32,000 nt of DNA. It comes from Caldivirga maquilingensis IC-167 (lineage in GTDB: Archaea; Thermoproteota; Thermoprotei; Thermoproteales; Thermocladiaceae). The DNA lies in contig NC_009954.1 in NCBI RefSeq assembly GCF_000018305.1, positions 1,590,001-1,622,000 on the forward strand, in the 5' to 3' direction. Below, piece by piece: positions 4,907-22,094 of this stretch. A program made the translations under genes and the position numbers. Within the stretch, counting starts at the first letter, position 1, and every line of letters starts with the position of its first letter. The notes beneath the pieces were generated by a model that saw nothing but the letters and a program-made list of their open reading frames with translations, did not search any database and was not told the origin of the DNA.

Positions 4907-5618
4907 AATCCAGAAGCCACCTGGGAAACTCAAGACCGGAGGCACCACGCCTCAGGAGACCTAAGGATTCCAGCGACTCAAGCAAATCCCCGGGCAGGGA
5001 CGCCAAGTCACCCTCAAGGACCTCACGCCTAAGGCTCAATGGTAACCTCGGTAAAATAACCAACTCACCGCTCTCACTTACATAAACCAATCTAGCACCC
5101 AGTATTGAAGCCACAAGCACAGAGGCCACAACCTCAATCTTCATACCACCACTAATACCTATGAAAACCTCGAAGCCACGCATCAAGTAATTACTCAACT
5201 CCCTACCAAGGGCATCCACAAGGTTTACAAAACCCCTCATCAAGTCACCACCACCGAAGAACCTAACCCTAACGTAACCCGCAACATTCACATGCCTAGA
5301 GAAGCATCTAGCAAGAGCCATAGTGCACAACTCAGCGGCATTAGTATCAGTGCTAAAGAATTCAAGCGTCAAGGGCTTAAACCCCTTCTCAAGCATGGAC
5401 CAGATCAGTGAAGCCTCAGCACAACACCTAGGATTACCGCAGGCAAAGTCTGATAACCTGCTGACGAAATCATCATTAAACAACACGTAGGCAGAATCCT
5501 CAGAACCCTGAAGAACACGACCCACAACCCCAGAGTAATCCCCAAGAGCATCACTACTCAACGCATTCCTCAACAACGAAACCCCCACAGTAATACCAAG
5601 AAAATAACCCATAAACAA
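4872..5618 (-). CDS. Stand-alone CARF-domain protein (APE2256-like family); candidate cOA sensor or ring nuclease
   Basis: N-terminal ITVGVSLLRN resembles the TVGTSLLxN CARF strand-loop. CAEASLI, STDTNAAE and ISGGMK resemble the SAE, TDT and (S/T)GG(F/M)K motifs of this family. No recognisable effector domain. The short C-terminal segment LESLESLGLLRRG could be a small wHTH. Confidence 0.55.
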   Translation of the reverse strand: MFMGYFLGITVGVSLLRNALSSDALGDYSGVVGRVLQGSEDSAYVLFNDDFVSRLSDFACGNPRCCAEASLIWSMLEKGFKPLTLEFFSTDTNAAELCTMALARCFSRHVNVAGYVRVRFFGGGDLMRGFVNLVDALGRELSNYLMRGFEVFIGISGGMKIEVVASVLVASILGARLVYVSESGELVILPRLPLSLRREVLEGDLASLPGDLLESLESLGLLRRGASGLEFPRWLLDFTRGGRPSART

Positions 5619-5742: not shown

Positions 5743-6603
5743 TTAATGTCTTTGCTGCTCCAATATTCCATAGCCAAGCGCCGTCTTAGCACCAATACCC
5801 CTACTAAACACTTTAGTTACTATACTCTGCAAATCATTAATCGTACAAACACCCTTGCAATCACTCGATAGGTAGATGTAATCCCCAGGCTCATTTCTGC
5901 ATCTATACTTTAACCTCCTCCTCTCAGCCATTATAATAACCCTAAAACCCACGCCAGTGGACACTGTGAGGAACGGTACAGGTACAGGCTTCACCTGGGG
6001 CTCGGCAATGGTTCTCGCGGGTTCAGCGTAGTGTGGGTTTATAATATCAAGCGTCATTAATGATTTCCCAGAGGGGCAGTAAACTGGGTATGAGTCCAGG
6101 ACAATTACGTGTGAGGCCTCGTCCATACTGCCGAAAGCCTGTGAGCATTGCGTCCCTTCAGCTGAGGCTCTCATGGCACCCTTTAGGGAGCTTGCGGGTA
6201 TATAGGGCAAGTTCATTATTGGATCCCAGGAGATGCCTTGTTCGAGAATCTCGAAGTAAGGGTTCCTAAGCCCAATGGCTAACCTAGTTAGTGTTATGAA
6301 TATGTTGTTGATTACTATTTCATAACCGAGATCCTTTAGTGCGTTTACCTGTTCGTCAAGGTACTTATTCGCTTTATCTAGTAAATCCTTGATGGTACTG
6401 CATTTATAGGCATCAGCGATACTCCTCATGGCATCCCTAGCAAATTCAGATATACCCACAACCTCCCGCTCACCTCCCCTCCCTGCCTTGCCCATTAAGT
6501 CCTTCGTGAAGTTCAGGAACTCACGCCTTACGTAACTAACCACGTTCGTGCCAGTATCCAGTGCAGTTTTCCCTCCAGTTACTGAGGCCATACGCGCTTC
6601 CAC
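5743..6603 (-). CDS. cmr6: Cmr6 (type III-B RAMP subunit)
   Basis: LPYIPASSLKGAMRA RAMP motif and C-terminal glycine-rich loop GIGAKTALGYGIL. It is the last gene of the cmr4-5-1-6 operon and overlaps cmr1 by 25 nt. Confidence 0.85.
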   Translation of the reverse strand: MEARMASVTGGKTALDTGTNVVSYVRREFLNFTKDLMGKAGRGGEREVVGISEFARDAMRSIADAYKCSTIKDLLDKANKYLDEQVNALKDLGYEIVINNIFITLTRLAIGLRNPYFEILEQGISWDPIMNLPYIPASSLKGAMRASAEGTQCSQAFGSMDEASHVIVLDSYPVYCPSGKSLMTLDIINPHYAEPARTIAEPQVKPVPVPFLTVSTGVGFRVIIMAERRRLKYRCRNEPGDYIYLSSDCKGVCTINDLQSIVTKVFSRGIGAKTALGYGILEQQRH

Positions 6604-7814
6604 CTTATTCTCTGTCTACCCAGATATTCTAGGAATTCGTTTAATGCTACGTAACTCGCATTTATTATGTCACGCTCATTAATAGTAATTGGTTTTGAGC
6701 CAGCGCCGTGCCAGGTTAATCCGCTGGGCCAATCAGCCGATAAGAACAATGCCAGGTAAGCAACATCATTATTAATGCCATGGATCGAGAGGAGCATTGA
6801 TGAAGCCCTCCTAACTATATTATTTGACATTAACCTATACCCGGTCCCCTTCTGCTCCCTGGGTAGGCCCAGTATCCAGGCCATAAACTCGTTTCTAAGT
6901 TCGTCCTTTGCTTTGGGGTTTCCCATGAGTATTTTAGCCCTTTCGGGTCTTAGGAAGAAGTTATGCAACTTAGGTAGTAAATCCCTGCCGTAAACCTCAA
7001 ATAACTGAAACACAAACAACCTATCGACATATCTATTTTTCACTTTCACATCAACACATTTTGTTAATTCCACATTACTAACTACAGGCATTGGTGGTAA
7101 CTCGCAGGATTCAAGACCACTCTTGCTCATCTCTTTAACTATGTCTTTTACAAGCTCTATTGTATAATTCAACTTCTTAGCAAATTCTTTATGGTTAAGG
7201 TTAAAGAGAAAACTATAGTCACCATCAACCTTATCTACATCAAGGCACCCAAGCCCCCTCCTACCACCCTTACCGAAGCATGAGAGGGTCAAGGCTATGG
7301 ATAAAACACTAAGGGATGCCTTAATGGCATTATCATCATTTAATTTCACATTATTATGTTTATCAATGGTTACGTAGAATTCAGCGCTGGGTTCCACATA
7401 TTGTAGCGTTCTACAGTCAAGGGTTAGTAAGCCAATCCTTTGGAGTACCTTACCACTTACGCGGTTGCTACATGCCTTATTGATCCTAATGTTTTGCCCA
7501 TGCCTGATTATCAACTTAAGGTGAGAGGCCACGCTCTCCTCACCAGCATAACCAAGTCCCAACTTCTCGCCCACGATTTTCGAGACCTTCTTAGCCTCGT
7601 CTTTCTTCGGCACTTTAATAATGTCCTTATCCGGATGGCCATGGAGCTGACCTGCCTCGTATAGAGCACCACTCACAAACGTCCTGGCCCACCAACGCCA
7701 AACACCCTTAACCTCACTGGGCCTCAGGGGCCAATCATAATCGACACTATTGGGGTCCGCGGAGCCTGTGAATAATGGCGTCACCAACCTGAGGGTAAGC
7801 TCTGCATATGTCAT
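6579..7814 (-). CDS. cmr1: Cmr1 (type III-B RAMP subunit)
   Basis: N-terminus LRLVTPLFTGSAD...LRPSEVKGVWRWWART matches the Cmr1 pattern (TPlf.gg ... ps.kG..RfW.R). Second G-rich segment GKGGRRGLG. ATGA overlap with cmr5. Confidence 0.8.
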   Translation of the reverse strand: MTYAELTLRLVTPLFTGSADPNSVDYDWPLRPSEVKGVWRWWARTFVSGALYEAGQLHGHPDKDIIKVPKKDEAKKVSKIVGEKLGLGYAGEESVASHLKLIIRHGQNIRINKACSNRVSGKVLQRIGLLTLDCRTLQYVEPSAEFYVTIDKHNNVKLNDDNAIKASLSVLSIALTLSCFGKGGRRGLGCLDVDKVDGDYSFLFNLNHKEFAKKLNYTIELVKDIVKEMSKSGLESCELPPMPVVSNVELTKCVDVKVKNRYVDRLFVFQLFEVYGRDLLPKLHNFFLRPERAKILMGNPKAKDELRNEFMAWILGLPREQKGTGYRLMSNNIVRRASSMLLSIHGINNDVAYLALFLSADWPSGLTWHGAGSKPITINERDIINASYVALNEFLEYLGRQRIRWKRVWPQ

Positions 7815-8299
7815 TGAGTCACCTCAGATATCATGGCCTCGGCAAGTCTCTTCAACCAATCAGCGAATGTCAGAATCTTATTAGTAACTATGACTTCGGT
7901 GCCTAGTGTGTTCAATTTATTAAGTAAATCCATCAAGTCCTTAGCCCCATCAATTAAGCCTAATTCCCTCATGGCCCATAGAAGGCATGCCCCATAAACT
8001 TCATAGGCCTCATCACTTATTTTATTCTTAATATTGCTTAGGTACTTTCCTATGTCCTTCTCATTAAGCACATTATTTAATTTACCATAACCACTCCCGT
8101 TCTTGTCTGAGGACTTCGCGAGTATGAATGCAAGTTCATACGTTAAACCATTGTAGTAAATACCCTCAAGTTCCCTCCTACACCTAGTCCTAAACCCCTT
8201 AAGTATATCATTATTGTTTAGGTTCTTGACTGCGTTGATGCAAGTTATGGCTAAATCCAAAGCCTTGTCCCTAACCTGCTCACTCATGGCAACCACCAA
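7811..8299 (-). CDS. cmr5: Cmr5 (type III-B small subunit)
   Basis: 162-aa protein that looks all-helical, positioned between cmr4 and cmr1. The segment NGLTYELAFILAKS...GSGYGKL resembles the conserved Cmr5 core. Confidence 0.7.
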   Translation of the reverse strand: MVVAMSEQVRDKALDLAITCINAVKNLNNNDILKGFRTRCRRELEGIYYNGLTYELAFILAKSSDKNGSGYGKLNNVLNEKDIGKYLSNIKNKISDEAYEVYGACLLWAMRELGLIDGAKDLMDLLNKLNTLGTEVIVTNKILTFADWLKRLAEAMISEVTQ

Positions 8300-9312
8300 A
8301 CCTTGGCTAAGCCCTTACCTAAGGTCTCCTTACCACCAAGTATGAAGATCGTGGAGGGATCTTGCGTCTCACCCCTTAAGTACCTGCATACCTCCTCTGC
8401 GTTATTCTTCATGTTAGTGAACTTCTGTAGGACATCACTTGAATCACCCACCTTTTCCTTGAAGGATTTCTCATTAATTCTAGGTTTACTGCACACCACG
8501 CCAGACACGAAAACAGTGAACTGGGGTAGGTACTCCTCCTCCCAGAGCCCGCCTTCAGTTACGGTCTTTTTGGAGTAATCAAGCCTTACCCTTGTTTGTA
8601 TAATGATGCTTCTCTTAATCAACTCCATCATATCATCATCACTAACTAACACCAAGCCTCTCTCCTTAACCCTCTCAGCAATGACGTTAGGTAGCGCTTT
8701 ATTAACAACTTCATTTAATTTCTCATTTAATTTGACATTTACATTGGCATTGAACTCGATTTCATTGAGTACGGCTTTCCCACCACTAATGACAAGGTCC
8801 CCCTTACTAACCACTGCAGTGCCCTGGTCAATGTTTTCCGTGAGTTTGATTAATTGGTCCAGGGCATTTTGGTACTTGCTTAAGTTGTTGTTAAGTGTCT
8901 CGAGGGCATCCACGTAAGTCCTATAGTAATTAAGCAAATGCCTCGAGGTTGCGTAGGCCCAAACACCCCTTAGCGACCTAATGGGCATTAGCAGGAGCTT
9001 GGCATCTAGGAAATTAACCACAGAGGAATACTCACTCACCTCGTCAGTGCCAGGCTCGGGCCCGAAAACCGCATTAATAAGCACTTTATGGCGCTGGTCA
9101 TTGCTTGAGCGGTTTAGTGTGAGGGAGCTCCTAATGGCACCCTTAAGGCTGCTGGACCATATAACGGGAATCCCAAATTCATCCTTCTGAACCTCTAAAT
9201 CCACGATCTTACCACCGCTACCAGTGCCTGGGTGCATGGGCGTTAGTGCCTCAATAAACGTTAACATAGAGTACTTGAGCGGGGCATTATTTTGTACACC
9301 AGTGGTGCTCAC
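8284..9312 (-). CDS. cmr4: Cmr4 (type III-B backbone RAMP, target-RNA cleaving subunit)
   Basis: LTPMHPGTGSGGKIVDLEVQKDEFGIPVIWSSSLKGAIRS is the canonical Cmr4 N-terminus, including the catalytic-position Asp (IVDLEV). C-terminal GGKETLGKG loop. GTG start at 9312. Confidence 0.9.
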   Translation of the reverse strand: MSTTGVQNNAPLKYSMLTFIEALTPMHPGTGSGGKIVDLEVQKDEFGIPVIWSSSLKGAIRSSLTLNRSSNDQRHKVLINAVFGPEPGTDEVSEYSSVVNFLDAKLLLMPIRSLRGVWAYATSRHLLNYYRTYVDALETLNNNLSKYQNALDQLIKLTENIDQGTAVVSKGDLVISGGKAVLNEIEFNANVNVKLNEKLNEVVNKALPNVIAERVKERGLVLVSDDDMMELIKRSIIIQTRVRLDYSKKTVTEGGLWEEEYLPQFTVFVSGVVCSKPRINEKSFKEKVGDSSDVLQKFTNMKNNAEEVCRYLRGETQDPSTIFILGGKETLGKGLAKVWWLP

Positions 9313-9395
9313 GTTTAGCTACTCTATTGAATATTTTTAAATTTTAAGTGACTATAATTAGTAAAGCTTAAAATAACACCTGTTGCTAAGCTATA
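9313..9395. promoter_or_regulatory. Divergent cmr promoter region (cmr4 operon leftward, cas10-cmr3 rightward)
   Basis: 83-nt A/T-rich gap with TATA-like ATATTTTTAAATTTTA (9331-9346) and TTAAAATA (about 9369-9376, 20-27 nt before the cas10 GTG at 9396). Confidence 0.4.
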
Positions 9396-12300
9396 GTGAG
9401 CAGTATTAATTCGTTTTTTGAGAAGAAGCTGTTGGCTTTAATGCATGATCCACCCAATAAAATGTGGATGATAATTAACGGAAAAGACCATGAGAAAGAA
9501 GCTGGGAGAATATATAATGATATTTTCAAGGAGACGGGAATAAGAGAGTTTACAGGGGGTGTTCCACCATATAAGGATTATAACAACCCCACCACCAGGA
9601 TTATTAAGGAAGCCGATTTGTTGGCTTCATCCTTCGATAGGTGGGTATTCCTAAAACCCAGTGGCGCCAATTACGTAGTTAAGAACATCAGGTACTTAAA
9701 CATATTTAAGCCAGCCACGCACCTCAAATATGAAATAAAGAACCAGGATATTAACATTGATAATTACGTAAAGAACATAAACGACATCCTTAAGAAATTA
9801 AACAGCAACATAAAGGATAACCCAAGGGCAGTCTACAACCTACTTTACGCATTATACGAGAGTGAGTGGGTAAAGCTAGGCCTACCACCAAGCCTAGCAG
9901 ACACAAGGGCACCGACACACGATGTCTTCGACCACGACTACGCAACCGTTATGATAATGAACTGGTTGCTTAATGGTAAGTTCAGCGGCTACTACGTGGT
10001 TGGTGACATACCGGGTGTTCAGCAGTTCATAATGGCGAGCAGGAAGGCGGGGGACCTATGGGCTAGTAGCTGGGTAATATCCATGACCATATGGCTCACC
10101 CTATGGCCATTGATATGGCACTACGGGCCGGACATACTGATTAGACCCACGGCGAGGCTAAACCCGCTGTATTACACATTCTTAGCGGCATCTTTAGACC
10201 TAGTAGCAGACGGTAAGGATCCTGAGGAGTCAGATAACCTATGTCTAATACTTAGGAAAGCAATTGAGTATGATATTAAACACACTAATTTAGTAAATTT
10301 AGTAATAGAACTAATAAAACCGCTATTAAAACCATTACTTCAACAAATCCAACAAGATCAACAAGAGAAATTGATAAGGAGAGTATTGAGCATCGCGTTT
10401 ATAGGCGAAGCATTCCAATTAGCGCTGCCACCAATCAACCCTGAGGGAAATGAGCTAAAGAGGCTGAAGAAGGACGATATACTCAGCAAGATCAGGGACA
10501 ACTTCGAAAAAGCCACCAAATGCCTAATTAATATATCCAGAGACGAAGTAAACAAGGAAGAGAATGACTATGTGAAGAGGATACTCCGGAGGGCCTTAGA
10601 CAAAGGATTGATCGAGCTAAGGCTACCACTAAGGGTGGCAGTGCTAGACGTAGGCAACTTATACAGTAAGTACAGGAGCGAGAAAGGATGCCCATTGAGC
10701 GACGATGTGTTGAGGGAAATAGGCATGGACAGGGAGGCGTGCCTAGACGCGCTCTTCTTCGACTACCTAATGACCAGCAAGGACGTAATAAAGGCAATAC
10801 GTGAAGAGGAAATGACGAGAATACCAACCAAGGGCGCATGGTTCGATGAACAGGGAAACCTGCTTTTCACGAAGCTTTATGACGGTGACTGGACAATAAG
10901 CACGCTAAGCCCAGATACGCCGGCAGTGATGAGGTTCGGTAAACGCTTTGAAAATAATAGGTTATGCTATGACGAAAAGACAACTAAGTGGTTAAATGAA
11001 TTGCTGAACATAAACAACCCTATATGCACAAATACTGATAATAATAACGAACGTAGATTAATAAGCACGTTCAAACCAGGAGAGGCGCTGAGCCCAGTGG
11101 ATCTAGCCAAGAGATTAATATATATTGGGTTAAGCGGGAAGTTAGAACTGGGCTTCGAGAGTACCGATGACGTAGCCGTGAAATACTTACATAGCCTACT
11201 CGAGTATAACAATATTGCAAATAAAGTATACCGTCGTGGTGATAAATATTGCGAGAGCTTATTGAGAGACTATATAATGAGGCCTAATCCACCCAGGGAC
11301 ATGGACCTAATATGCAAAGACCAAGTATGCGGAAACCCAGAACAAATAAGGAGACTGGCCAGAGACTGCGTTGAGGAATTCGGCAAAAAGGAGGAGGACA
11401 AGGGGGTCGCTGAGGAAATAATAGGTAAGTTAACCAAGGACGGGGTATTACAGGACATACACAACCTAGTGGGTAATGGGGCCGACATGGCGGTAAACGC
11501 AGTGAAGGAGCTCCTCAACTTCCACTTCATGTACGCGATAATAAGGGGTGACGGGGACTCACTGGGCAGGATTCATCGCGGTGAACTACCCAATTACTAC
11601 GAATCACTACGTGAATTCTATGAGGACTTAAAAGAGAAGGCTAATGAATTGGTAATTGGTAATAAGGATGAATTCCTGAAGGACTTGGAAAACCAGGAAA
11701 AGTTACTAAGTGAGTTAGAGGAAAGATTAGAGGAAAAAGAGGAAAAGCTAGAGGGAAAAACAAAGATAAGGGTACCGGTGACTCCTGCATATAAGTTTGC
11801 AATAACGAGGGCGCTCATGGTAACGGCAATGAGGGTGCTCGCAAGGACCATGGACATATCCATGCCCGTGTACCTGGGCGGGGACGACCTATTGATTTTG
11901 TCGCCCGTGGAGGCAGCTCTGAAGATTGTTGAGGACTCCAGGAAGATATACTGGGCAGTGGATGAGAACACACCCTTCTTCCACAAGGTCAATAAGGACT
12001 ACGTAATACCAGCCCTAGCAGCCTATGGGCAAAGCTACTCAATAAGGTACGCACACCTCCTCGACATATTCTCAGAGGAGTACCTAAGGGCAGGGGAACT
12101 CCTTGAGGAGGTGGCTAAGGAGGCGAGGTGGGGCGGTGATTACGAGAAGGACTCACTGGTCATAAGCCACTCGAGAACGGGCACCGAGGTCGTACTACCA
12201 ATAAGGCCAGAAAATAATGGGGACAACTGGGTGATCGACTCCATAGATCGCCTAAGGACCCTATGGACAGCGCTGTTGGCAGGGCTGGTGAGTAGCAACA

Positions 12301-12533
12301 CGCCTGAGGACTTGGACAAATACAGCGAATTATTCATGAGGGATCAACCCGACATGGGGATAATCAAGGACGTCTTAAAAACAATACTCAAAAGAAACAT
12401 AAAGGTGACCGGCGAGGAGGGTAAGCAAAACGTGGCGAGTAAACTCCTGGGTGAGGATGTGTACGATGGTTACTACCACACCGTGTGGTACAACTTAATT
12501 AACTCAATAAGAATACTGAGGCGATTACCATGA
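9396..12533 (+). CDS. cas10: Cas10/Cmr2, type III-B large subunit with HD and cyclase (GGDD) motifs
   Basis: N-terminal LMHDPPNK (H17 D18, nt 9444-9449). Cmr2 signature ADTRAPTHDVFDHD. Palm motifs IIRGDGDSLG (nt 11547-11567) and VYLGGDDLLILSP (GGDD at nt 11877-11888). 1045 aa. ATGA overlap with cmr3. Confidence 0.95.
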   Translation: MSSINSFFEKKLLALMHDPPNKMWMIINGKDHEKEAGRIYNDIFKETGIREFTGGVPPYKDYNNPTTRIIKEADLLASSFDRWVFLKPSGANYVVKNIRYLNIFKPATHLKYEIKNQDINIDNYVKNINDILKKLNSNIKDNPRAVYNLLYALYESEWVKLGLPPSLADTRAPTHDVFDHDYATVMIMNWLLNGKFSGYYVVGDIPGVQQFIMASRKAGDLWASSWVISMTIWLTLWPLIWHYGPDILIRPTARLNPLYYTFLAASLDLVADGKDPEESDNLCLILRKAIEYDIKHTNLVNLVIELIKPLLKPLLQQIQQDQQEKLIRRVLSIAFIGEAFQLALPPINPEGNELKRLKKDDILSKIRDNFEKATKCLINISRDEVNKEENDYVKRILRRALDKGLIELRLPLRVAVLDVGNLYSKYRSEKGCPLSDDVLREIGMDREACLDALFFDYLMTSKDVIKAIREEEMTRIPTKGAWFDEQGNLLFTKLYDGDWTISTLSPDTPAVMRFGKRFENNRLCYDEKTTKWLNELLNINNPICTNTDNNNERRLISTFKPGEALSPVDLAKRLIYIGLSGKLELGFESTDDVAVKYLHSLLEYNNIANKVYRRGDKYCESLLRDYIMRPNPPRDMDLICKDQVCGNPEQIRRLARDCVEEFGKKEEDKGVAEEIIGKLTKDGVLQDIHNLVGNGADMAVNAVKELLNFHFMYAIIRGDGDSLGRIHRGELPNYYESLREFYEDLKEKANELVIGNKDEFLKDLENQEKLLSELEERLEEKEEKLEGKTKIRVPVTPAYKFAITRALMVTAMRVLARTMDISMPVYLGGDDLLILSPVEAALKIVEDSRKIYWAVDENTPFFHKVNKDYVIPALAAYGQSYSIRYAHLLDIFSEEYLRAGELLEEVAKEARWGGDYEKDSLVISHSRTGTEVVLPIRPENNGDNWVIDSIDRLRTLWTALLAGLVSSNTPEDLDKYSELFMRDQPDMGIIKDVLKTILKRNIKVTGEEGKQNVASKLLGEDVYDGYYHTVWYNLINSIRILRRLP

Positions 12534-13525
12534 GCCAGGCCCGTGAATTCCTTGAATTAAGGATAAAGCCCATAGAGCCACTACACCTCACGGCAGGCCC
12601 CATAAGGGGCATAGACCTAATAAGCGCAACCAGGGCATCATACGCACCACTACCCACAACGGTAATAGGGTTACTCGCAAACATATACTATGAAACAAAT
12701 AATAAAACCCAAACCGGTAAAATCCAGGACCTAGACTGTGGGGTGGAGGATTTGCTTAAGGTTAAGGATGAGGCTGGTATAGAGGACGTATGGGGACCAT
12801 TAATTGTAATAAACGGGAGGGAACACTTCCTGGTGGAAAACACGCTACTACCCGTAGAGACTCTGAAGGACTATGTAGAACTCGTGAAAATGGATAAGGA
12901 ATGCCAGGGGGAGTGTTACCAAGACCTAACTAAGGAATACTACCAATTCAGGGAAATAAGCAAAGTAGGCATAGCGATTAATATGGAGACTAGAACGGTA
13001 AGGCAGGGATTCATGTACGTACAGAAGTATACATGGCCGTATAGAGTAATTAAGGATGATGAATCGGAACCAGTACCACCGGGATGGTACTATAAGTACA
13101 TAATAATCATGAACCCGCAGAAGGCGGGGTGGATACGAGGTAAAATCACGTGGAACATAGGTGGTGAAGGTAGGCAAGCATTAATAGAGATGGGGAGAAC
13201 AAACCAAAAACCACCACAACCCACGAAAGAAGCAATACTACTCACACCACTAATATTCACAGGGGAGAAACCATACGTGGAGGTAGACAAAATAGACCCA
13301 AACATAGGGAAAATACATGGAATATTAACAAGCAAGGGGCCAAAGATAAAAATCACAACAACATCACTAGGCTACCGTGGTAAAACTAATCAATCAGAAA
13401 ACTGTAGAAGACCCATATACCCGGCACTACCGCCAGGGACGCTTGTAGAATTGAAGCAGCAGGTAAGTAAATTAGGGTTATATACGCAATTAGGGTATGG
13501 GGCAACATACCCACTCCCCCTCTAA
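12530..13525 (+). CDS. cmr3: Cmr3 (type III-B RAMP subunit)
   Basis: Translationally coupled to cas10. N-terminus LRIKPIEPLHLTAGP is Cmr3-like. C-terminal G-rich loop LGLYTQLGYGATYP. Confidence 0.8.
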   Translation: MSQAREFLELRIKPIEPLHLTAGPIRGIDLISATRASYAPLPTTVIGLLANIYYETNNKTQTGKIQDLDCGVEDLLKVKDEAGIEDVWGPLIVINGREHFLVENTLLPVETLKDYVELVKMDKECQGECYQDLTKEYYQFREISKVGIAINMETRTVRQGFMYVQKYTWPYRVIKDDESEPVPPGWYYKYIIIMNPQKAGWIRGKITWNIGGEGRQALIEMGRTNQKPPQPTKEAILLTPLIFTGEKPYVEVDKIDPNIGKIHGILTSKGPKIKITTTSLGYRGKTNQSENCRRPIYPALPPGTLVELKQQVSKLGLYTQLGYGATYPLPL

Positions 13526-13557: not shown

Positions 13558-14361
13558 TTACTGAAGGGTGTATTGTTTGGTTAATATTTTTCCTAAGTCG
13601 GTGGGTTTGTATATGTATGCCTTCCCCACTTTCTCATACGTTATTACCCCCTTCCTCCTTAATTTCGTTAGTTTCCTCTCAATTGATGCCTTTGATGGCC
13701 TTCTACTCCTTTCGAATTGACCATTAATTGCCTGTATTATCTCCTTTGCCTTAATCCCATCCTCCTTAGAGGTAATGATTCTCAGTATTTCATACTCCAG
13801 CTTATCCATGCTGGTTAATGCTGGTATAATCGGCCAGTGTATTATCCTCTCCCTAATTCCTGGAAAGATCCTCTTTATACTGGGACTCTCCTCCTCAAGC
13901 ATTACGAAGACATCCTCAACATTAACACGAGTATACCCACCTATGGTTTTTAACGCCATGGCCAGGAACATGAGAACCACGGATAACCACCTTAAACCAC
14001 CGGCAATGGCTATGGTTACTGAGGTTGGTGCCAAGGATTCCACAAGAGTCCTGAGTAATGCCACGTTATCAGCAAGGTGCCTACTCGGCGATAACCACAC
14101 ATCCTTAATATCCACTTCAGGTATATTATCGAGTATTATTTTTCTAATCTGATTCATCGCATCCTCCGGCTGCATCCTACCTCCACGGGGCCTTAGGTCT
14201 TCAATCCTCCTGGGCTCACTATTAACCAGTATAATGACGTCACCCGGCCCAACACCTATACTCATTATCGCTACAATAGCGTTATACGGATACATGCCCA
14301 CACTCACCACTATTGTCCTCTTTAATTTCAACTCCTCAATTGATTGAGGTGAATTCACCAT
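13558..14361 (-). CDS. csa3: Csa3-type regulator (CARF domain plus C-terminal winged HTH)
   Basis: N-terminal Rossmann-like IVVSVGMYPYNAIVAI...DVIILVNSEP. C-terminal wHTH EILRIITSKE...SKASIERKLTKLRRKGVITYEKVGKAYIYKPTDLG. Sits between the cmr and type I-A modules. Confidence 0.75.
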   Translation of the reverse strand: MVNSPQSIEELKLKRTIVVSVGMYPYNAIVAIMSIGVGPGDVIILVNSEPRRIEDLRPRGGRMQPEDAMNQIRKIILDNIPEVDIKDVWLSPSRHLADNVALLRTLVESLAPTSVTIAIAGGLRWLSVVLMFLAMALKTIGGYTRVNVEDVFVMLEEESPSIKRIFPGIRERIIHWPIIPALTSMDKLEYEILRIITSKEDGIKAKEIIQAINGQFERSRRPSKASIERKLTKLRRKGVITYEKVGKAYIYKPTDLGKILTKQYTLQ

Positions 14362-14387
14362 AGATCGAGATATATTTAAAGAAAAAG

Positions 14388-14395
14388 TTTATAAA
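14388..14395. promoter_or_regulatory. Palindromic TATA element TTTATAAA shared by divergent csa3 and the type I-A operon
   Basis: Lies 27 nt from the csa3 ATG (14361, minus strand) and 30 nt from the ATG at 14425 (plus strand). Purine-rich BRE-like bases flank it on both sides. Confidence 0.4.
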
Positions 14396-14424
14396 TCTTA
14401 TCAGGAGTCTTTTTGTGGAGGTGT

Positions 14425-14793
14425 ATGTCGCAGTCTAGTCAAGATGAGTCGCAAAAGGTAAAGACATATACCTTTGAAAATATGATTGATCTCTTAGCAA
14501 CCTACGTCAGTAATAGTGAGTATGGTGTGCTCGACGCTATGGTGAATGCTCATGATATCGAAGGATCACTTAAGGCGCTCTATAACGCTGTTAGGTACGC
14601 AGTTACTAAGGGCTACATTACCAAGCCAAATGAATTATACGGTGAGGTAAATGCATTCACCGAGGCAGTCAGGAGGTATGGCAAGAGAATTATTTACGAG
14701 ATCGCCATAAAGGCGCTCGTAAAGGGCTACATGAGGGCCTATGAAACAACGAAGGCTGCTAGTGAAGAGCAGGAGTCTGTAAGACAGGGGTGA
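14425..14793 (+). CDS. csa5: Probable Csa5 (type I-A small subunit)
   Basis: Small (about 122 aa) protein that looks helical, immediately upstream of cas7 (Csa2), which is the canonical csa5 position. The track start 14413 is TTG; ATG 14425 fits the TATA spacing better. Assignment rests on position and size only. Confidence 0.5.
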   Translation: MSQSSQDESQKVKTYTFENMIDLLATYVSNSEYGVLDAMVNAHDIEGSLKALYNAVRYAVTKGYITKPNELYGEVNAFTEAVRRYGKRIIYEIAIKALVKGYMRAYETTKAASEEQESVRQG

Positions 14794-14797
14794 GAGC

Positions 14798-15967
14798 ATG
14801 GTCTTCGTGAGCATGGGCTTTAGGTTTAGGGTTCAGGCAGAAGCCATGAACATGGTCGAGTCATGGGGCAATTACACCAGACACAGAATAATACCTGTAA
14901 TTAAGAGAGTGAGGACAAAAAACGGAGTAATTAAGTATAAAGTTCAGTACGCACCAGCAGTATCAGGGCAAAGTATTAATTACGCATTCATGAAGGTACT
15001 CACTAACCTTGCAATTGAAAGGAACTTGCCGGTATGCGATGAGTGCAAAAGATATGAATTAATAGGCGGCTTTCCGAAGAGACCAGAAATAGAGGACAAT
15101 GAAGAGAAGAAGCTAATTAACGAATCCTTTGGCTACCTTAAAGTTGAGGGGAAGAGAGTATTGGAATGCGTTGTTGAGGATATAACAGGCTTTATGGCAG
15201 TTACAGAGACAGAGAGGGGTGGAAAAAGGAGAACTAAAAAGGAGAAAAACCCCGAAAAAGAGACCGATAGAACTGAGAAGGGCGCAGGCGTTAAAAGGAC
15301 CGCCAAGGTTTGGTTCAGTTACTTACTACCAGACCCCAACAGCGACTTCTCAGTGGGACCTCAGTTCCACGTTAGGTTTAATAGGGAGAATCCTGACGAG
15401 CAGGCAGTAATCCAGGTTGAGTCAGGGAGTGCTATTTACACCCTCTACACCTTCATTGACGTTGACGGAATAGGCGCATACTATGAGAGGGCGAACGATA
15501 GGTATGTACTTAAGTATGTTAATAACCGCAGGGAGAGGATTAAATTAGTCTTTGACGCATTAATGCTAACCCTGAGCGGACTTCTTGGCGCGAAGCAGTC
15601 AAGGTACCTATCGATTAGGGAATCCCTTAGTGGTATTGCCGTGGTATCTAAGGTTCCATTTATGGTCTCTCCAGTTGTTTTCGGCTACGACTACGTGCAA
15701 GATACTGTAGATAGAGCAAAAATAATTAGTAAGGTAATAGTTGAAACAAGCACTGGCACTGGTTCCCAACAAGATGCCAGCTCCGAATCCACCACATCTG
15801 TGATTAAAATCTTTTACTATGATAGAGAAGGAATCCACCCAAAGGAAAGCAAGCCAGAAAAGAAAGAAAGTGAGACCTACAAGGAACCCATAGAAATAAA
15901 TGAGGTATCTGGACCCGAGGACATGATCAATAAGGTTAAAGAGACAGTCCTAAATATGCTTAAATAA
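14798..15967 (+). CDS. cas7: Cas7 (Csa2), type I-A backbone subunit
   Basis: N-terminus FRFRVQAEAMNMVESWGNYTRHR matches the Csa2 signature (eaLNm.Es.GN...H). VSGQSINYAF motif. Carries a K/R/E-rich insertion and a long low-complexity C-terminal tail. Confidence 0.85.
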   Translation: MVFVSMGFRFRVQAEAMNMVESWGNYTRHRIIPVIKRVRTKNGVIKYKVQYAPAVSGQSINYAFMKVLTNLAIERNLPVCDECKRYELIGGFPKRPEIEDNEEKKLINESFGYLKVEGKRVLECVVEDITGFMAVTETERGGKRRTKKEKNPEKETDRTEKGAGVKRTAKVWFSYLLPDPNSDFSVGPQFHVRFNRENPDEQAVIQVESGSAIYTLYTFIDVDGIGAYYERANDRYVLKYVNNRRERIKLVFDALMLTLSGLLGAKQSRYLSIRESLSGIAVVSKVPFMVSPVVFGYDYVQDTVDRAKIISKVIVETSTGTGSQQDASSESTTSVIKIFYYDREGIHPKESKPEKKESETYKEPIEINEVSGPEDMINKVKETVLNMLK

Positions 15968-15982
15968 CAAATAAAGTAGGTA

Positions 15983-16825
15983 ATGGCTATGTACGTACTT
16001 CTCGTTAAAATCAAGTTTTTGAGCGGTTTCATGTTATTACCACCCCATGTTATTCAATCAAGCGGTTACCCAGCACCTTCACCTACTACCTTAGTTGGTG
16101 CGTTGGCCTTTCCCTACATTAAGTTAATGGAATACCCCGAACTTGAGAGTAATTACTCGACAGCTAAGTACCTACTTGACCAGGTAGTATACGCGAGTTT
16201 CTGGGCTCCTCCTTACATCACGCACCTGGATACTGTGAGGGGATTCACATTAACCTGGCAAAGACACGAGAGACTAAGGAACCTAAGTAAAATAATAGTT
16301 TGCATAGAGAAGAACATAGATTGCAAAAAAGCTGAGGAAGCAAAGGACTCGGCTTACGGTCCTCTTTCAATGCCAATTACTGTTTACGAGGGGCCTGCTT
16401 ACATAGCGTACGTGGTTAAGGATAAAGATCTAGTTAGGTATGCGTACGGCATTGTCAGGATCGGCATGAAGGAGTCCCTAGTAGCCGCTGAAAAGATGTG
16501 GTTATTCGACTTGAGAAGTATAGTCGTTAGCAATATTGAGAGTGTGGAGACGCGATTTTATGTCCCAGCTAGGCTCGTGAATTCATGCAATAGGTGCGAT
16601 ACTTATAAAATGCCCACCCTTAATCCGCAGAACTACAGCTCTCTCGCCATTCAAGACTACGTTAGTGAAGAAGATGGAAGTAAGGTTTACGAGGTTTTCT
16701 ACGTCCCGCGTAACATTGACAACATGCAAGTAAAACCTAAAGAGGGTGAGACCCTAACCCTTAGGTTACAAGCCGATAATGAGGAGCTAATGCTTATAGT
16801 GCCTAAGCAAGGGGTGATGGAATGA
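15983..16825 (+). CDS. cas5: Cas5a (type I-A)
   Basis: The N-terminal strand followed by YPAPSPTTLVGALAFPY is the Cas5 family motif (p.PspstlvGal). ATGA overlap with the next gene. Confidence 0.8.
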   Translation: MAMYVLLVKIKFLSGFMLLPPHVIQSSGYPAPSPTTLVGALAFPYIKLMEYPELESNYSTAKYLLDQVVYASFWAPPYITHLDTVRGFTLTWQRHERLRNLSKIIVCIEKNIDCKKAEEAKDSAYGPLSMPITVYEGPAYIAYVVKDKDLVRYAYGIVRIGMKESLVAAEKMWLFDLRSIVVSNIESVETRFYVPARLVNSCNRCDTYKMPTLNPQNYSSLAIQDYVSEEDGSKVYEVFYVPRNIDNMQVKPKEGETLTLRLQADNEELMLIVPKQGVME

Positions 16826-17853
16826 GTAATAACACAGCTAGTAATACGCAAGAAAGCGCAAGGAACGCCATTGAGATAAATCTATGTAATTCGTGGGAGT
16901 TCAGGCACATGAGAATCACTTGGTATGCGAGGTTTATGCTGATGTACGTAAAGGGTGATTTGGATATCTTTGACAAAGACGTAGTAAGTTCCGAGGACAG
17001 CATTCATAATACCTTAGAACAATACAACAACTTTGCTAAGAGCAATGAGTTATGCAGAGAATTAATAGTCAATGATAACGAAGATAATGAGTACATTAAT
17101 CTACAGGACTTTAAGCAAACAAGAGGTAAAAAACGTGAAGAAATTGAAAGGCACGGTATCAGAATTAACCGGACTGCATCAGATGAATTCAACATTAATC
17201 TAAAGGAGTACGTGAGGGGGTTCCTAAGATCCATCGCTAGAAAGAGCGATGCATTTAGAGTAAGTTACGCATTACTTAAGGTGGCATTATGTGGTGAGCG
17301 ATTAAGCCGTATTGGTGCGAACAAGCACGTAATACTGGATCTGCGTGTTGACGTGCCAGAACTTTATAGTGAGGTTTTTAATGATATACATAGATACTTC
17401 AGGAAATTTAATGGGTGGAGGGGCGAGGGAGCAAAGGGAGGGAGCAAGCCGACGCCTGTGGAGTACTCATTACTCATTTACGCCGCTTCCGTGATAGCCA
17501 GTAAGATTAGGAGTAGTGAGCCGGCGATACTTTATTACATAACTGAGAATGGGGTTGCCTCGTATGAATTAAACAACTTAATAAGCGACTTAAAGCGGTT
17601 GAGGATTTATACTTATTATAAAATGTTGATAGATAAGTATAACCCTGACGAACAAGGTTCTGATGTGTTACTGGGGTTCATAAATAGCTTGACTTATGCA
17701 ATCATGGTTTACAACAGGATTAGGGATTTAGGGCCACTTTATGAGACGTTGAGGATGCTTAGCAGTGAGGAGTTAGTTAATGAGCTTGAGAAAAGAGAGA
17801 TCTCAGTGCTTGAGTTTCTGCGTAATCTGTCGAAGGCGGCTTTTTATGCCTAA
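16822..17853 (+). CDS. Putative Cas8a-like large subunit (Csa4/Cas8a2-sized); family not recognised from motifs
   Basis: 343 aa, translationally coupled on both sides (ATGA with cas5, ATGCCTAA with cas3'). It is the only gene in the operon that could supply the missing large subunit. Size matches Cas8a2. Confidence 0.45.
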   Translation: MSNNTASNTQESARNAIEINLCNSWEFRHMRITWYARFMLMYVKGDLDIFDKDVVSSEDSIHNTLEQYNNFAKSNELCRELIVNDNEDNEYINLQDFKQTRGKKREEIERHGIRINRTASDEFNINLKEYVRGFLRSIARKSDAFRVSYALLKVALCGERLSRIGANKHVILDLRVDVPELYSEVFNDIHRYFRKFNGWRGEGAKGGSKPTPVEYSLLIYAASVIASKIRSSEPAILYYITENGVASYELNNLISDLKRLRIYTYYKMLIDKYNPDEQGSDVLLGFINSLTYAIMVYNRIRDLGPLYETLRMLSSEELVNELEKREISVLEFLRNLSKAAFYA

Positions 17854-19594
17854 TTTAAAACCGAGACCTGGTATAGATAAATTATTGGAGGTACTTGATA
17901 GCAAGTTAAAAGGCCACGAAAAACCCTTTATTATTGCCGAGTTACCTACCGGTTACGGTAAAACCACAGCATCTCCTTATATTTATAAGTTAGTCAATGA
18001 GTACGGCATCTCGGACCGCGTAATTCACGTACTCCCCCTTAGGGCTATAATTAGAAAGCTCATTCAGGACATTACTGATGAAGGAACATGGATCGGCAGT
18101 TTATTTAGGGAAATTAGGCTAGGCATTAATGATATTGCCTATCAAATGGGCGAATTTGTCGTAAACGTTAGAAAGGAGCCGTTTTTCGACGCAAAGTACA
18201 CCTTAACGACTCTGGATTCCTTCGTCCATAATCTCTTTAAGATACCCATTACAGAGCTCTACAGAGACAAAAAGCATTACTTTATTCCGCTGGGCAGGAT
18301 ATTTACATCAACCGTACTTCTCGACGAAGCACACATAGCATTAGCCGCCGAATCCGAGAAAACAATCTCTACGGTAATTGCATCAATCAACGCACTACTT
18401 AGCTCGCACGTGCCTATAGTAATGATGACGGCCACATTACCGAGCAAGTACGAGAAATTAATAATTGAAAAAGTTAATAATATTAAGAAAGCCAGACCCA
18501 TAGTAATAAGGCTTGGGAAGAAGGAAGAGGTTAAAAGTAACGAAATCACAATAATCACAGTCCACGACCCAGATTTCGAAAACACGTATTCCAATGTTAA
18601 GTATGTGCACGAAAAGGTCTCTAAACTCAGGATCATTGATAAGGCAATGGATGAGGTAAATAATGGGAGGAGGGTCCTTATAGTTTTAAACAACATACGT
18701 AAGGTCATAAACATTTATAGAGAAATCAGTGATAGAATTAATGACAGCGACATTGCGTTGGTACATTCTAAATTAATAGGACGAGATAGAGAAATGTATG
18801 AGAGCAGAATCAATAAGGTGAAGGTCCTCATTGGTACTAGTGCCATAGAGGCAGGCGTTGATGTATCATTCGATACATTAATAACTACTATCGACAACCC
18901 AATGTCCTTTATTCAGAGGATAGGTAGGATTTGCAGGAAGGGTCCGGACGACTGCGCCGATGGGGAGGGAAGAATATACTTGATTAATGATGATTCAGAT
19001 AACCTAGAGGGGGCAATTAACTATGTTCTCACTAAGAAAATAAATTGGCGACTGCCCTATAACGTGAGTAATGACTTCATGGGCTACATGGAGTTCCTGG
19101 AAACCTTTACGGAAAAGATGGGTGCAATAACTTATGACGAAAGGCACCTAAGTATTCTCAATAGGGTGTTCATGAACATTTACATCTCAAGCAAAACATT
19201 GAATGAGCTACTTAAGTTAACTAGGGGGTCTTTGCTCAGGGAGCCCCTGATAAATGTATTCATTGGTGACCTCAATAAGCCATGTAGCGATGTGGGGATC
19301 AATGAATTTTTAGAGCGGTCATTTACTATAGACTTAAGTGAGGTGGTGTTAAATAAAAGTGGATTCTGCGCAAAAATGAAAGAGTGCATGGTGGGGATTG
19401 GGATACTTGAGAATGATGTATTAAGCTGCAGTTACCTTACTAACGACTCTGAAGACTTTAAAAAGAGTCTCTGTACTGACAACGTTTATAACATGTTCTT
19501 CAAACTAGTTGAGAAATATAAGGCACCATTAGTTATAATTATTAAAGATGAGTGTTACGAGGAAGGCATAGGCTTCAAACTCCACGGTGGTTAA
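17846..19594 (+). CDS. cas3: Cas3' (stand-alone Cas3 SF2 helicase)
   Basis: Walker A LPTGYGKT, DEAH box LLDEAH, motif III MMTATLP, and helicase C-terminal motifs TSAIEAGVD and IQRIGRICR. ATG 17846 is preferred over the track start 17780, which overlaps the previous gene by 74 nt. Confidence 0.9.
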   Translation: MPNLKPRPGIDKLLEVLDSKLKGHEKPFIIAELPTGYGKTTASPYIYKLVNEYGISDRVIHVLPLRAIIRKLIQDITDEGTWIGSLFREIRLGINDIAYQMGEFVVNVRKEPFFDAKYTLTTLDSFVHNLFKIPITELYRDKKHYFIPLGRIFTSTVLLDEAHIALAAESEKTISTVIASINALLSSHVPIVMMTATLPSKYEKLIIEKVNNIKKARPIVIRLGKKEEVKSNEITIITVHDPDFENTYSNVKYVHEKVSKLRIIDKAMDEVNNGRRVLIVLNNIRKVINIYREISDRINDSDIALVHSKLIGRDREMYESRINKVKVLIGTSAIEAGVDVSFDTLITTIDNPMSFIQRIGRICRKGPDDCADGEGRIYLINDDSDNLEGAINYVLTKKINWRLPYNVSNDFMGYMEFLETFTEKMGAITYDERHLSILNRVFMNIYISSKTLNELLKLTRGSLLREPLINVFIGDLNKPCSDVGINEFLERSFTIDLSEVVLNKSGFCAKMKECMVGIGILENDVLSCSYLTNDSEDFKKSLCTDNVYNMFFKLVEKYKAPLVIIIKDECYEEGIGFKLHGG

Positions 19595-20359
19595 ATGCCT
19601 TGCTGGGCCTACTACCCTAAGCAAGACATGGGGGACCGCGAGAAGCCTGAGGAATACTACTTACACATTAATGACATAATTGACTATATGAGTAAGTCAC
19701 CCTTGTTAAGCGCTATCGTGAAGAAAATAAAGTACATAACCAATATAGAGGAGGAATTCATTGTAGACTTTATACTATTAAGCGGATTGTTCCACGACAT
19801 TGGGAAAACGATTATTCATTACCAGAAAAACCCCGTGAACTTCAGTGGCCATGAAGTCGCAAGCATGGTGTTTGTGTACCATGCACTCATAAAGATAGGC
19901 TTACTTAAGAGCAACGACATTATCAAGAAGTTAATGGAAAGTAGCAACACCGGTAAGAAGGAGTTATACGCAGCACTCACCCTGGTACCAATATTCCTAC
20001 ACCACTATGCATTCGGGAACTTTAACGAAAGAATCAAAAAGGGTCTAGAGCTAGTAAACAATAAGGACGACTTTAGAATCTACGATGATTGCAAAGACGA
20101 AATCGAGAAAACCCTTAAGTACATAAATGAAATTATAAAAAGTGAAGAAGCAATCAAGGTAATCAAGGCAGCTAAGGAATTAATAACAACAAATGACCTC
20201 CACATAGTAATTCACAAACTAGATGACCAGGTCGAAAAAGACCTACCCTACTTAAGTTCAGACAGCATCAACCTCCGCATTGCATCAACCGTACTTTCAT
20301 TACTCAATGAAGCAGACGGCAGGGTATCCATAAAAAACCGCCGCAGAAACCCTAAATGA
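19595..20359 (+). CDS. cas3: Cas3'' (stand-alone HD nuclease)
   Basis: HD motif LSGLFHDIGK, followed by H-containing motifs (FSGHEVAS, FLHHYAF). Starts directly after the cas3' stop. Confidence 0.85.
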   Translation: MPCWAYYPKQDMGDREKPEEYYLHINDIIDYMSKSPLLSAIVKKIKYITNIEEEFIVDFILLSGLFHDIGKTIIHYQKNPVNFSGHEVASMVFVYHALIKIGLLKSNDIIKKLMESSNTGKKELYAALTLVPIFLHHYAFGNFNERIKKGLELVNNKDDFRIYDDCKDEIEKTLKYINEIIKSEEAIKVIKAAKELITTNDLHIVIHKLDDQVEKDLPYLSSDSINLRIASTVLSLLNEADGRVSIKNRRRNPK

Positions 20360-20413
20360 ATTCAGAACTCTAATCTCATGATTACGTATATCACACTTGA
20401 TATATAAATCCTT

Positions 20414-21264
20414 TTAAGTGCGGTTCTTAATCCTGGCCTCCCTGTAACTTAATACCTTATGCTCTTGCATACCCTAGCCCTATGGATCTATTTTGTCTAC
20501 TCCAGTATTGTTATGGTCTTTATTACTTCCTTCATTATTGTTACTGGGGATGGTCTTGTGAATGTTATATAGATGGTTCTTGATGTGAACACCTTCATGG
20601 TCCTCTTCACGTTTTCCATGATTCCTAGGTTTATGGCTATTATCCTGTGCCTCCTTATGCCTATTAGCTCTGTGTTTATTGCGATTCTTTGGCTATCTCC
20701 TTAGATTTATGTTCTTCACGATGCCTATGTATTCATTGCCCTTTTCCTTACTATTATTTCTTTAATTTGGTTAATATTTCGCTTATTGTGTTCATAGCAT
20801 TAATTACGAACATACTGAGACTTAGGTAGAGTATGTACCTTGATCTGAATTTGAATGCTGCGGGTCTGTAGTCCATGATCCAGGTTATCAATGCACCATA
20901 TGTCCCGGCCTCGTCCTCTACTATGTTCATTAATGCTATCCTAGCTCTGGCATTATTGATTATCAACTCGTGGTTTTTAGTAAACCGCTTCATAAGCGCA
21001 TCCCTAGCCTTCTCACTTATCGTGGTTACACTGAATGTATATACTTGCCTTGGATTAAGCTTATTATTTAGTCAGTTCTTCTTCCCTATCCATTATTGGC
21101 GTTATGTATAGGTGCTTCCTAGCCCTATGGTCTATGTTTATCCCATTTCCGCTCAGTGCCCTTGTTATTAATGCATTTAGGAATAACCCATGCCACTTAG
21201 CAAACAACACAGGAGACTCTGGGATGAATCCCACAGTCACCTTGTAAAGCTTAACCACATACAT
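20414..21264 (-). pseudogene. cas6: Probable decayed cas6 (fragments in three frames with in-frame stops)
   Basis: (i) Intact 66-aa N-terminal ORF with a Cas6-like start (YKVTVGFIPESPVLFAKWHGLFLNALI ... RKHLYITPIM). (ii) A second frame continues with NPRQVYTFSVTT ... ELIINNARARIALMNIVE. (iii) Near the 3' end TGVDKIDP*G*GM aligns with the Cas6 glycine-rich loop G.G.....G.GM, with TAG stops at 20480-20482 and 20474-20476. Total length of about 280 codons is Cas6-like. Assignment rests on pattern memory only. Confidence 0.35.
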
Positions 21265-21611
21265 TAATCAAACCCCTAATAATAAGCGTTCTCAATCATG
21301 GATAAGCTAAGCCTTAATAGAAACAGGCATTGCAATCGAATATATTCACAGTGGTTGTGTTGGTTTGTGGTTTTATTCTTGTTTGTGATTCCTGTCTTCT
21401 TTCATTGAGTCAAATATATACTCTATATATTATCATCGGCACAGTTTCATTATCATTCTTCATTTCTTTCAATTAGCACAACCATTAGGGGGCTTCATTA
21501 CATCATCAGCACAGGAATGTGAGAGCACAGAATAGCAGAATGGTTGTGCTAATGATAAACAAAACAGGCAGTAGAGTAAAACTTAAAAACCCTAAAAAAG
21601 CTGATAACTCA
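21265..21611 (+). promoter_or_regulatory. CRISPR leader
   Basis: A/T-rich non-coding stretch next to the well-conserved end of the array; the degenerate repeat is at the far end. TATA-like TTAAAAA at 21583-21589, 23-29 nt before the first repeat. Confidence 0.6.
21472..21553. repeat. 15-bp perfect inverted repeat inside the leader
   Basis: ATTAGCACAACCATT (21472-21486) and its exact reverse complement AATGGTTGTGCTAAT (21539-21553), separated by 52 nt. Confidence 0.9.
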
Positions 21612-22094
21612 GAAAATCCCAAAAGGGATTAGAAAGTATTGCATAATCAAGCAATTTAGCATAACCCCATCCGCTTACGAAAATCCCAAAAGGGATTAGA
21701 AAGATATTGGTATCATTGAGTTCACCAATACGTTTTATAACAAGTGACCTGAAAATCCCAAAAGGGATTAGAAAGGTCAGGTGGGTTGATAACCAATTCA
21801 AGCCCATAGATATACTTGAGAAAATCCCAAAAGGGATTAGAAAGTGTTTCCGAAGGCGTTGCTCCACGTTAGGTACCCGTTGATAATCGTAAATCCCAAA
21901 AGGGATTAGAAAGCATGTAGGGGATAGATCCCTATGCACCCCGATTATATCAAGTAAATCCCAAAAGGGATTAGAAAGTGCATTATGAGGGCGTCCGCTA
22001 TTAAACCGTGGCCTGGGGTTAGAAAATCCCAAAAGGGATTAGAAAGGCATGGGGTGTAGCTGATATATCAGAGAATCTCAAAAGGATTAGGTGG
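21612..22094 (+). CRISPR. CRISPR array: 7 repeats of 25 nt plus 1 degenerate terminal repeat
   Basis: Consensus GAAAATCCCAAAAGGGATTAGAAAG with an internal ATCCC/GGGAT stem. Repeats start at 21612, 21679, 21751, 21820, 21889, 21954 and 22022; the degenerate copy is at 22071-22094. Spacer lengths are 42, 47, 44, 44, 40, 43 and 24 nt. Plus orientation is supported by leader position and the GAAAG 3' end typical of crenarchaeal repeats. Confidence 0.95.

Follow-up and report, generated by a model that had tools for sequence, protein, structure and literature searches.

Between the last gene of a type I-A module and the leader of a CRISPR array, the chromosome of Caldivirga maquilingensis IC-167 carries a region that was described in an earlier note, made from the sequence of this locus, as a decayed cas6 pseudogene and as the only cas6 candidate. 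This raises the question of which enzyme, if any, matures the crRNAs for the type I-A and III-B complexes encoded in the same island. We analysed a window of 32,000 nucleotides (C1:1590001-1622000) together with the rest of the complete, 2,077,567-bp chromosome, hereafter called C1, of this genome (completeness 99.97%). The window encodes csx1, nurA, herA, a Cas_APE2256 gene, a type III-B module, csa3 and a type I-A module that comprises csa5-like, cas7, cas5, an unassigned 343-aa gene, cas3' and cas3''. The last of these genes ends at position 20359 of the window and is followed by the region in question, the leader and an array of seven repeats (Table 1). Two Cas_APE2256 (ring-nuclease-like) paralogues are found on either side of csx1-nurA-herA, at window 4872-5618 and C1:1589302-1590198.

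Table 1. Positions of the cas6 copies, of the pieces of the pseudogene and of the neighbouring CRISPR features (window positions unless marked C1).
Feature	Position	Strand	Remarks
Type III-B (cmr) module	5743..13525		Frames open; Cas10/Cmr2 retains GGDD
csa3 and type I-A interference module	13558..20359		Convergent with the cas6 pseudogene; frames open
cas6 pseudogene, whole extent	20457..21264	-	ATG 21264 or GTG 21258, to TAA 20459-20457
N-terminal piece, 66-aa ORF	21064..21264	-	Paralogue residues 1-62, 55% identity
Middle piece	20769..21071	-	Paralogue residues 64-173, 34% identity; holds the 79-aa ORF 20993-20754
Cluster of 3-4 frameshifts (~20768, 20745, 20704, 20684)	20683..20768	-	A-rich; paralogue residues 174-202
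C-terminal beta-hairpin piece	20515..20682	-	Paralogue residues 203-258; retains the arginine equivalent to Sso2004 R232
Glycine-rich loop	20460..20514	-	Broken by two 1-nt deficits, ~20514 and ~20497
CRISPR leader	21345..21611	+	Divergent from the pseudogene; 81-95% identity to those of the other eight arrays
CRISPR array, 7 repeats and 6 spacers	21612..22046	+	25-nt hairpin repeat
Full-length cas6 paralogue	C1:1584098-1584973		5.0 kb left of the window, 25.5 kb from the pseudogene; genome-wide PF10040 search

A cas6 pseudogene beside the array leader

The minus-strand region from 21264 to 20457 is a full-length cas6 pseudogene. When the full-length Cas6 paralogue encoded elsewhere on the chromosome was used as a tblastn query, this region was matched in four collinear pieces (E 2e-35) and nothing else in the genome was, the best HSP reaching 75 bits compared with at most 21.9 bits in 200 shuffles of the DNA. 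We also built an independent Cas6 HMM from homologues of other genomes only, with no sequence of this genome. In a genome-wide six-frame search, three pieces of the pseudogene were matched by this profile at E values of 4.5e-10, 2.5e-9 and 0.003, and its only other match in all six frames of the chromosome is the full-length paralogue. A frameshift-aware alignment extends from 21258 to 20460 and covers residues 1-277 of the 291 residues of the paralogue at 41-44% identity. By both the independent HMM and this alignment, the homology to Cas6 spans the two RAMP domains.

All three approaches thus find Cas6 similarity in the region and uphold its description as a decayed cas6. The pieces proposed in the earlier note do follow each other in N-to-C order, namely the 66-aa ORF (21264-21064), a middle piece in a second frame and a C-terminal piece. 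Their number was set too low, the paralogue-based alignment placing four frameshifts within 20768-20684, and the end, given as 20414, is at 20460 in the alignment, directly followed by the stop codon. No single open frame of about 240-300 codons is present, the longest ORFs being those of 66 and 79 aa. Neither of them reaches the Cas6 Pfam cut-off, nor does the pseudogene in genome-wide scans, as expected for fragments. A match of the 79-aa ORF to DUF5531 was rejected: its 21.7 bits are below the cut-off of 25, and none of 11 intact homologues matches that domain. No Rfam RNA was found inside the pseudogene, and our literature searches found no paper on this locus.

Alignment to the paralogue alone yields seven frameshifts, near 21072, 20768, 20745, 20704, 20684, 20514 and 20497, and alignment to the profile yields six. 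All are compatible with deletions of 1-2 nt, and many adjoin A runs. At the first lesion, near 21072, a net 2 nt are missing, and the frame of the middle piece then runs from stop to stop (21071-20757). In this piece T143, P155, P157 and S163, which are conserved in 88-100% of the family, are replaced; the substitutions at conserved codons include P155L, P157L, S163N and V138M, several of which are single transitions. Between the preceding helix and the second half of the glycine-rich loop there are 22 nt in the pseudogene and 24 in the paralogue, two bases being missing. The loop was previously read with TAG codons exactly at two hydrophobic positions. These codons are out of frame, since the true frame shifts at ~20497 after TGV and continues as NRSIGLGY, with the loop Arg and the third and fourth Gly kept; the TAGs are a coincidence of staying in one frame. 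The GhGxxxxxGhG motif is found across this frameshift, its second Gly codon being the broken one. The terminal TAA stands four codons past the last loop glycine, would remove the last strand and may be an eighth lesion.

The frameshift-aware alignment has no in-frame stop inside its 259 aligned codons. This absence is not evidence of selection, because a transition could create a stop at only six sites, such that zero stops have a P of 0.06-0.56 for 5-10% decay. No close intact orthologue of either cas6 copy was found by a DNA search of 41 genomes, a protein search of 61 genomes (best matches 29-36%) or a search of metagenome contigs. A search of 5.8 billion proteins returned the query itself only, and in a profile search of 1.84 billion representatives the best outside match was at 32%. 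Decay by slippage in short runs is plausible, not proven. NucS/EndoMS acts on base mismatches and not on slippage loops; the presence of a homologue in this genome (C1:276002-276319) would fit an indel-rich decay. By analogy, the type of lesion fits the spontaneous mutations of S. acidocaldarius, among which single-base frameshifts in short runs are prominent (PMC4471258).

The surviving cas6, the adaptation scar and the arrays

That the pseudogene is the only cas6 candidate holds within the window; the genome as a whole has a full-length cas6, which bears out the alternative, raised in the earlier note, of a Cas6 encoded elsewhere. The protein scores 48.7 bits against PF10040 (cut-off 25) and 29.5 bits against the TIGR01877 equivalog model, below the cut-off of 58.65, a shortfall of uncertain weight. 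Its predicted fold is that of a double-RAMP Cas6 (AlphaFold pLDDT 82), and the top 37 Foldseek matches are all Cas6 or Cas6-family proteins, with 6FJW and 4ILR as the best PDB entries at ~1e-12. The reading frame is unbroken in three sequencing runs, and a TATA-like element is present ~20 nt upstream; a sigma-70 promoter scan was set aside as not applicable to archaea. No third cas6 was found in the genome using PF01881, PF21350, PF19308, the independent HMM or a scan for the G-loop motif. PF09559 gave no match either, but the control sequences were silent with it too. Of note, the cas6 of a related genome bin, located beside an array (positions 158768-159540 of its contig C2), consists of two adjacent ORFs of 158 and 118 aa and represents either another broken cas6 or an assembly error.

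The two copies of Caldivirga are sister paralogues (tree support 100/97) within the Thermoproteaceae clade, with 43% identity, and they have in common the departures S23H, R159M and loss of G236 from the rest of the family. Identity between them is 63/71/39% by codon position, and 17 of 43 fourfold sites are identical, which indicates that most of their divergence took place under selection on both copies and that the decay is younger. They occupy opposite ends of a 29-kb CRISPR island: the surviving gene is the cas6 that closes the adaptation operon, and the dead copy is the one beside the I-A module.

That adaptation operon is itself largely gone. Neither PF01867 nor PF09827, the signatures of cas1 and cas2, has a match in the genome at its 99.97% completeness, and tblastn searches of it with the Cas1 and Cas2 proteins of relatives gave no match. 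A scar is found outside the window, at C1:1583655-1584067, where a 24-codon stub of the csa1 N-terminus, 58-63% identical to the Csa1 proteins of relatives, abuts a lone inverted repeat. Next come ~45 nt of a leader end and the 3' half of cas4, and then the full-length cas6. Relatives carry csa1-cas1-cas2-cas4 in this order (PMC3396285; also seen in their genomes here), and therefore cas1 and cas2 were cut out in this genome, together with most of csa1, leaving it without a complete adaptive CRISPR-Cas system. The scar illustrates cleanly how systems restricted to interference arise. The loss of adaptation may be genus-wide. We did not find cas1 in five fragmented assemblies of the same genus, three of which are at least 90% complete; these five assemblies also lack the CRISPR repeat of this genome. 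In the rest of the family, cas1 was found in 12 of the 13 genomes searched, one of these matches being weak and under the cut-off. On the other side of the full-length cas6, between it and the next array, C1:1585033-1588174 encodes a flavoprotein oxidoreductase resembling mercuric reductase, a thioredoxin-like protein and an ArsR-like regulator (sequences read by eye).

The array beside the pseudogene had been called short, which is correct for its seven repeats and misleading for the genome, which holds nine arrays with 54 repeats and 45 spacers. A single 25-nt repeat (Rfam CRISPR-DR17), which folds into a 6-bp hairpin, is common to all nine with minor variants, and their leaders are 79-95% alike. 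No spacer targets the chromosome, and self-targeting as a cause of either loss is thus unsupported. We also identified a duplication of arrays: those at C1:1583088-1583382 and C1:1700150-1700374, 117 kb apart, have their first three spacers in common, one of which is 5 nt shorter in one array, and their leaders are 92% identical. A 16-nt exact match between spacer 2 of the array at C1:780147 and spacer 7 of that at C1:1588509 perhaps reflects overlapping protospacers of one invader.

The earlier note also proposed that the whole locus might be on its way to inactivation. This applies to adaptation, which is gone genome-wide; the effector genes of both the I-A and the III-B module have open frames and keep the motifs that we checked. 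With a lesion density in the pseudogene of ~8.75 per kb, ~170 lesions would be expected, as a crude estimate, in the 19.9 kb of neighbouring cas and accessory genes, and none is evident. No reading frame is interrupted, most of the genes cover their family profiles well, and the GGDD, DEAH, HD and Csx1 HEPN motifs are present. The effector genes and the other cas6 were thus kept while the pseudogene decayed, and the pseudogene serves as an internal clock and control for the pace at which unselected DNA breaks in this genome. Only the altered G-loop of the remaining Cas6 keeps the idea of inactivation alive. The system would still be able to interfere and unable to acquire new spacers.

Processing of the crRNAs

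The likely mechanism is that the surviving Cas6, supplied in trans, processes the transcripts of all arrays. The lineage carried two cas6 paralogues, one closing csa1-cas1-cas2-cas4-cas6 and the other between the I-A module and an array leader, which diverged for a long time under purifying selection. As all arrays have essentially one repeat, one processing enzyme could serve them all. One copy then decayed by small deletions and a few transitions at conserved codons, the deletions probably arising by replication slippage in short runs, as is typical of hyperthermophilic crenarchaea lacking MutSL. What is left of it encodes no nuclease, but at most fragments of 66 and 79 aa. The surviving Cas6 would cut the pre-crRNAs of the nine arrays, presumably leaving the usual 8-nt handle, and would feed both the I-A and the III-B complexes; the sharing of one Cas6 between systems is documented (PMC3973734). 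Loss of the second copy is an ordinary redundancy loss.

The main reservation concerns the loop of the surviving enzyme, in which one of the four glycines is missing. The third is replaced by Ala271, a residue present in all three sequencing runs, at a position occupied by Gly in all 142 aligned homologues. In addition, Thr268 stands at the position of the loop Arg (Sso1437 R269); Thr is found there in 34 of the 142 homologues, mostly with a Lys just before. The pseudogene retains both the Arg and the third Gly. Elsewhere in the protein, R229 aligns to Sso2004 R232, and K48 is presumably the equivalent of Sso K51, by an alignment made by eye; no basic residue is found near Sso K25/K28, as in several other family members. 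Of 31 conserved columns, the surviving Cas6 has a non-consensus residue in 8, the family median being 3. The nearest outside relative of both copies is also off consensus at 8 of the 31 columns, including an Asn at the first loop glycine, a residue found there in 30 of the 142 homologues.

Ala271, Thr268, the score below the TIGR01877 cut-off and these eight departures may all count against processing in trans. It is unlikely that both copies are effectively dead, the pseudogene by its frameshifts and the full-length protein by Gly271Ala and Arg268Thr, which would leave crude or no crRNA and an intact-looking, recently silenced CRISPR island devoid of adaptation. In its favour, only this protein among 143 sequences has Ala at position 271, the genome has lost cas1 and cas2, and the pseudogene keeps exactly the two loop residues that the survivor has lost. 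Mutagenesis at equivalent positions is damaging: the G256A change in Haloferax Cas6 lowered crRNA to 12% and abolished interference (PMC3945376), and replacement of the loop R269 of Sso1437 by Ala has a cost of at least 10-fold (PMC3652601). However, frameshifts would be expected in a copy that died when the pseudogene did, and neither the full-length cas6 nor the 19.9 kb of neighbouring genes carry any, so that any loss of its function would have to be very recent. The Thr at the Arg position is far from unique, albeit mostly accompanied by a preceding Lys in the homologues; the Haloferax mutant retained some crRNA, and the effects of substitutions need not carry over between Cas6 families so distant. 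Given its unbroken gene and the intact effectors, we consider the surviving Cas6 to be probably active rather than dead or bypassed.

A bypass would mean that the full-length Cas6 is a non-catalytic binder and that another nuclease processes the hairpin repeat, in which case neither cas6 would need to cut. In favour of this, Pyrococcus has Cas6-like proteins that do not cut, both cas6 copies deviate here alongside intact effector genes, both have lost the family-conserved R159 and G236, and the repeat folds into a hairpin. This scenario is nevertheless highly improbable: no candidate for an alternative enzyme was identified, the surviving protein retains basic residues that probably match part of the Sulfolobus catalytic set, and archaeal arrays are processed primarily by Cas6 (PMC3973734).

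Even less credible is the notion that the 66-aa or 79-aa fragment is kept as a small functional protein or that the gene is recoded by programmed frameshifting. Identity to the paralogue is higher in the N-terminal piece than in the middle piece (55% versus 34%), and the aligned codons are free of stops. The latter is unsurprising given the few sites that could become one, and the middle piece has lost P155, P157, T143 and S163. No relative with the same split was found in the 41-genome DNA, 61-genome protein and metagenome contig searches, and to our knowledge no case of recoding comes close to six or seven shifts. Finally, errors of the reference assembly in an intact gene would account for lesions readable as 1-2 nt deficits, many beside A runs as in homopolymer miscalls, but this is practically refuted by de novo Logan contigs from two sequencing runs other than the reference, SRR9435970 (4,939 bp, window 16444-21382) and SRR9435971 (3,237 bp, window 18146-21382), which span all lesions with 0 mismatches and 0 gaps, and by the substitutions that conserved codons carry as well.

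The pseudogene itself is routine, and the main points of interest are the adaptation scar and the altered loop of the surviving enzyme, a natural variant in which the need for the 'invariant' third glycine of the G-loop can be tested. If this Cas6 is active, its loop would point to tolerance or compensation; if it is inactive, a CRISPR system would have been turned off without visible gene loss. We hold it to be somewhat unlikely that this archaeon, having lost the cas6 with the canonical G-loop Arg and Gly and keeping only the Ala271 version, has been left with an inactive or nearly inactive enzyme. If true, a point change would have silenced nine arrays and intact I-A and III-B modules, or these would depend on a processing route that does without Cas6.

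Comparison with known systems

Compared with the Cas6 endoribonucleases of PF10040 (Thermoproteaceae clade; solved relatives include Sso2004 and Sso1437 of S. solfataricus, 4ILL, 4ILR and 3ZFV, and Cas6 of S. thermophilus, 6FJW), the pseudogene is collinear over its full length. It has in common with them the W-x-G, P-T-x-F and R-x-x-x-x-F motifs and the C-terminal Gly-rich loop, and, like genes of this family, it is located beside a leader and an array. Unlike them, it carries 6-7 frameshifts, several of its conserved residues are replaced, and its identity to the cas6 products of related genomes is only 26-31%. Most of those genes directly follow cas3'' and have its orientation, whereas in this copy the two genes are convergent.

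The surviving Cas6 naturally carries the Ala that was introduced by the G256A mutation in the Cas6 of Haloferax volcanii (Brendel et al. 2014, PMC3945376), and the spacing of the loop glycine positions is identical, 263/265/271/273 here and 248/250/256/258 in Haloferax volcanii. The Haloferax variant was made in the laboratory from a distant Cas6, of type I-B and His-dependent, and the effect may differ in the family studied here.

The closest parallel to the arrangement as a whole is found in Pyrobaculum islandicum (Bernick et al. 2012, PMC3396285), which belongs to the same order, lacks cas1 and cas2 and has a single listed cas6 located apart from its effector genes. Both genomes have several arrays of one repeat type, and in P. 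islandicum mature crRNAs were shown to be made from its five arrays. Its effector system is of type III-A only, whereas this genome has type I-A and III-B modules and a nurA-herA cluster and, unlike P. islandicum, displays both a visible scar of the deletion of its adaptation genes and a dead second cas6.
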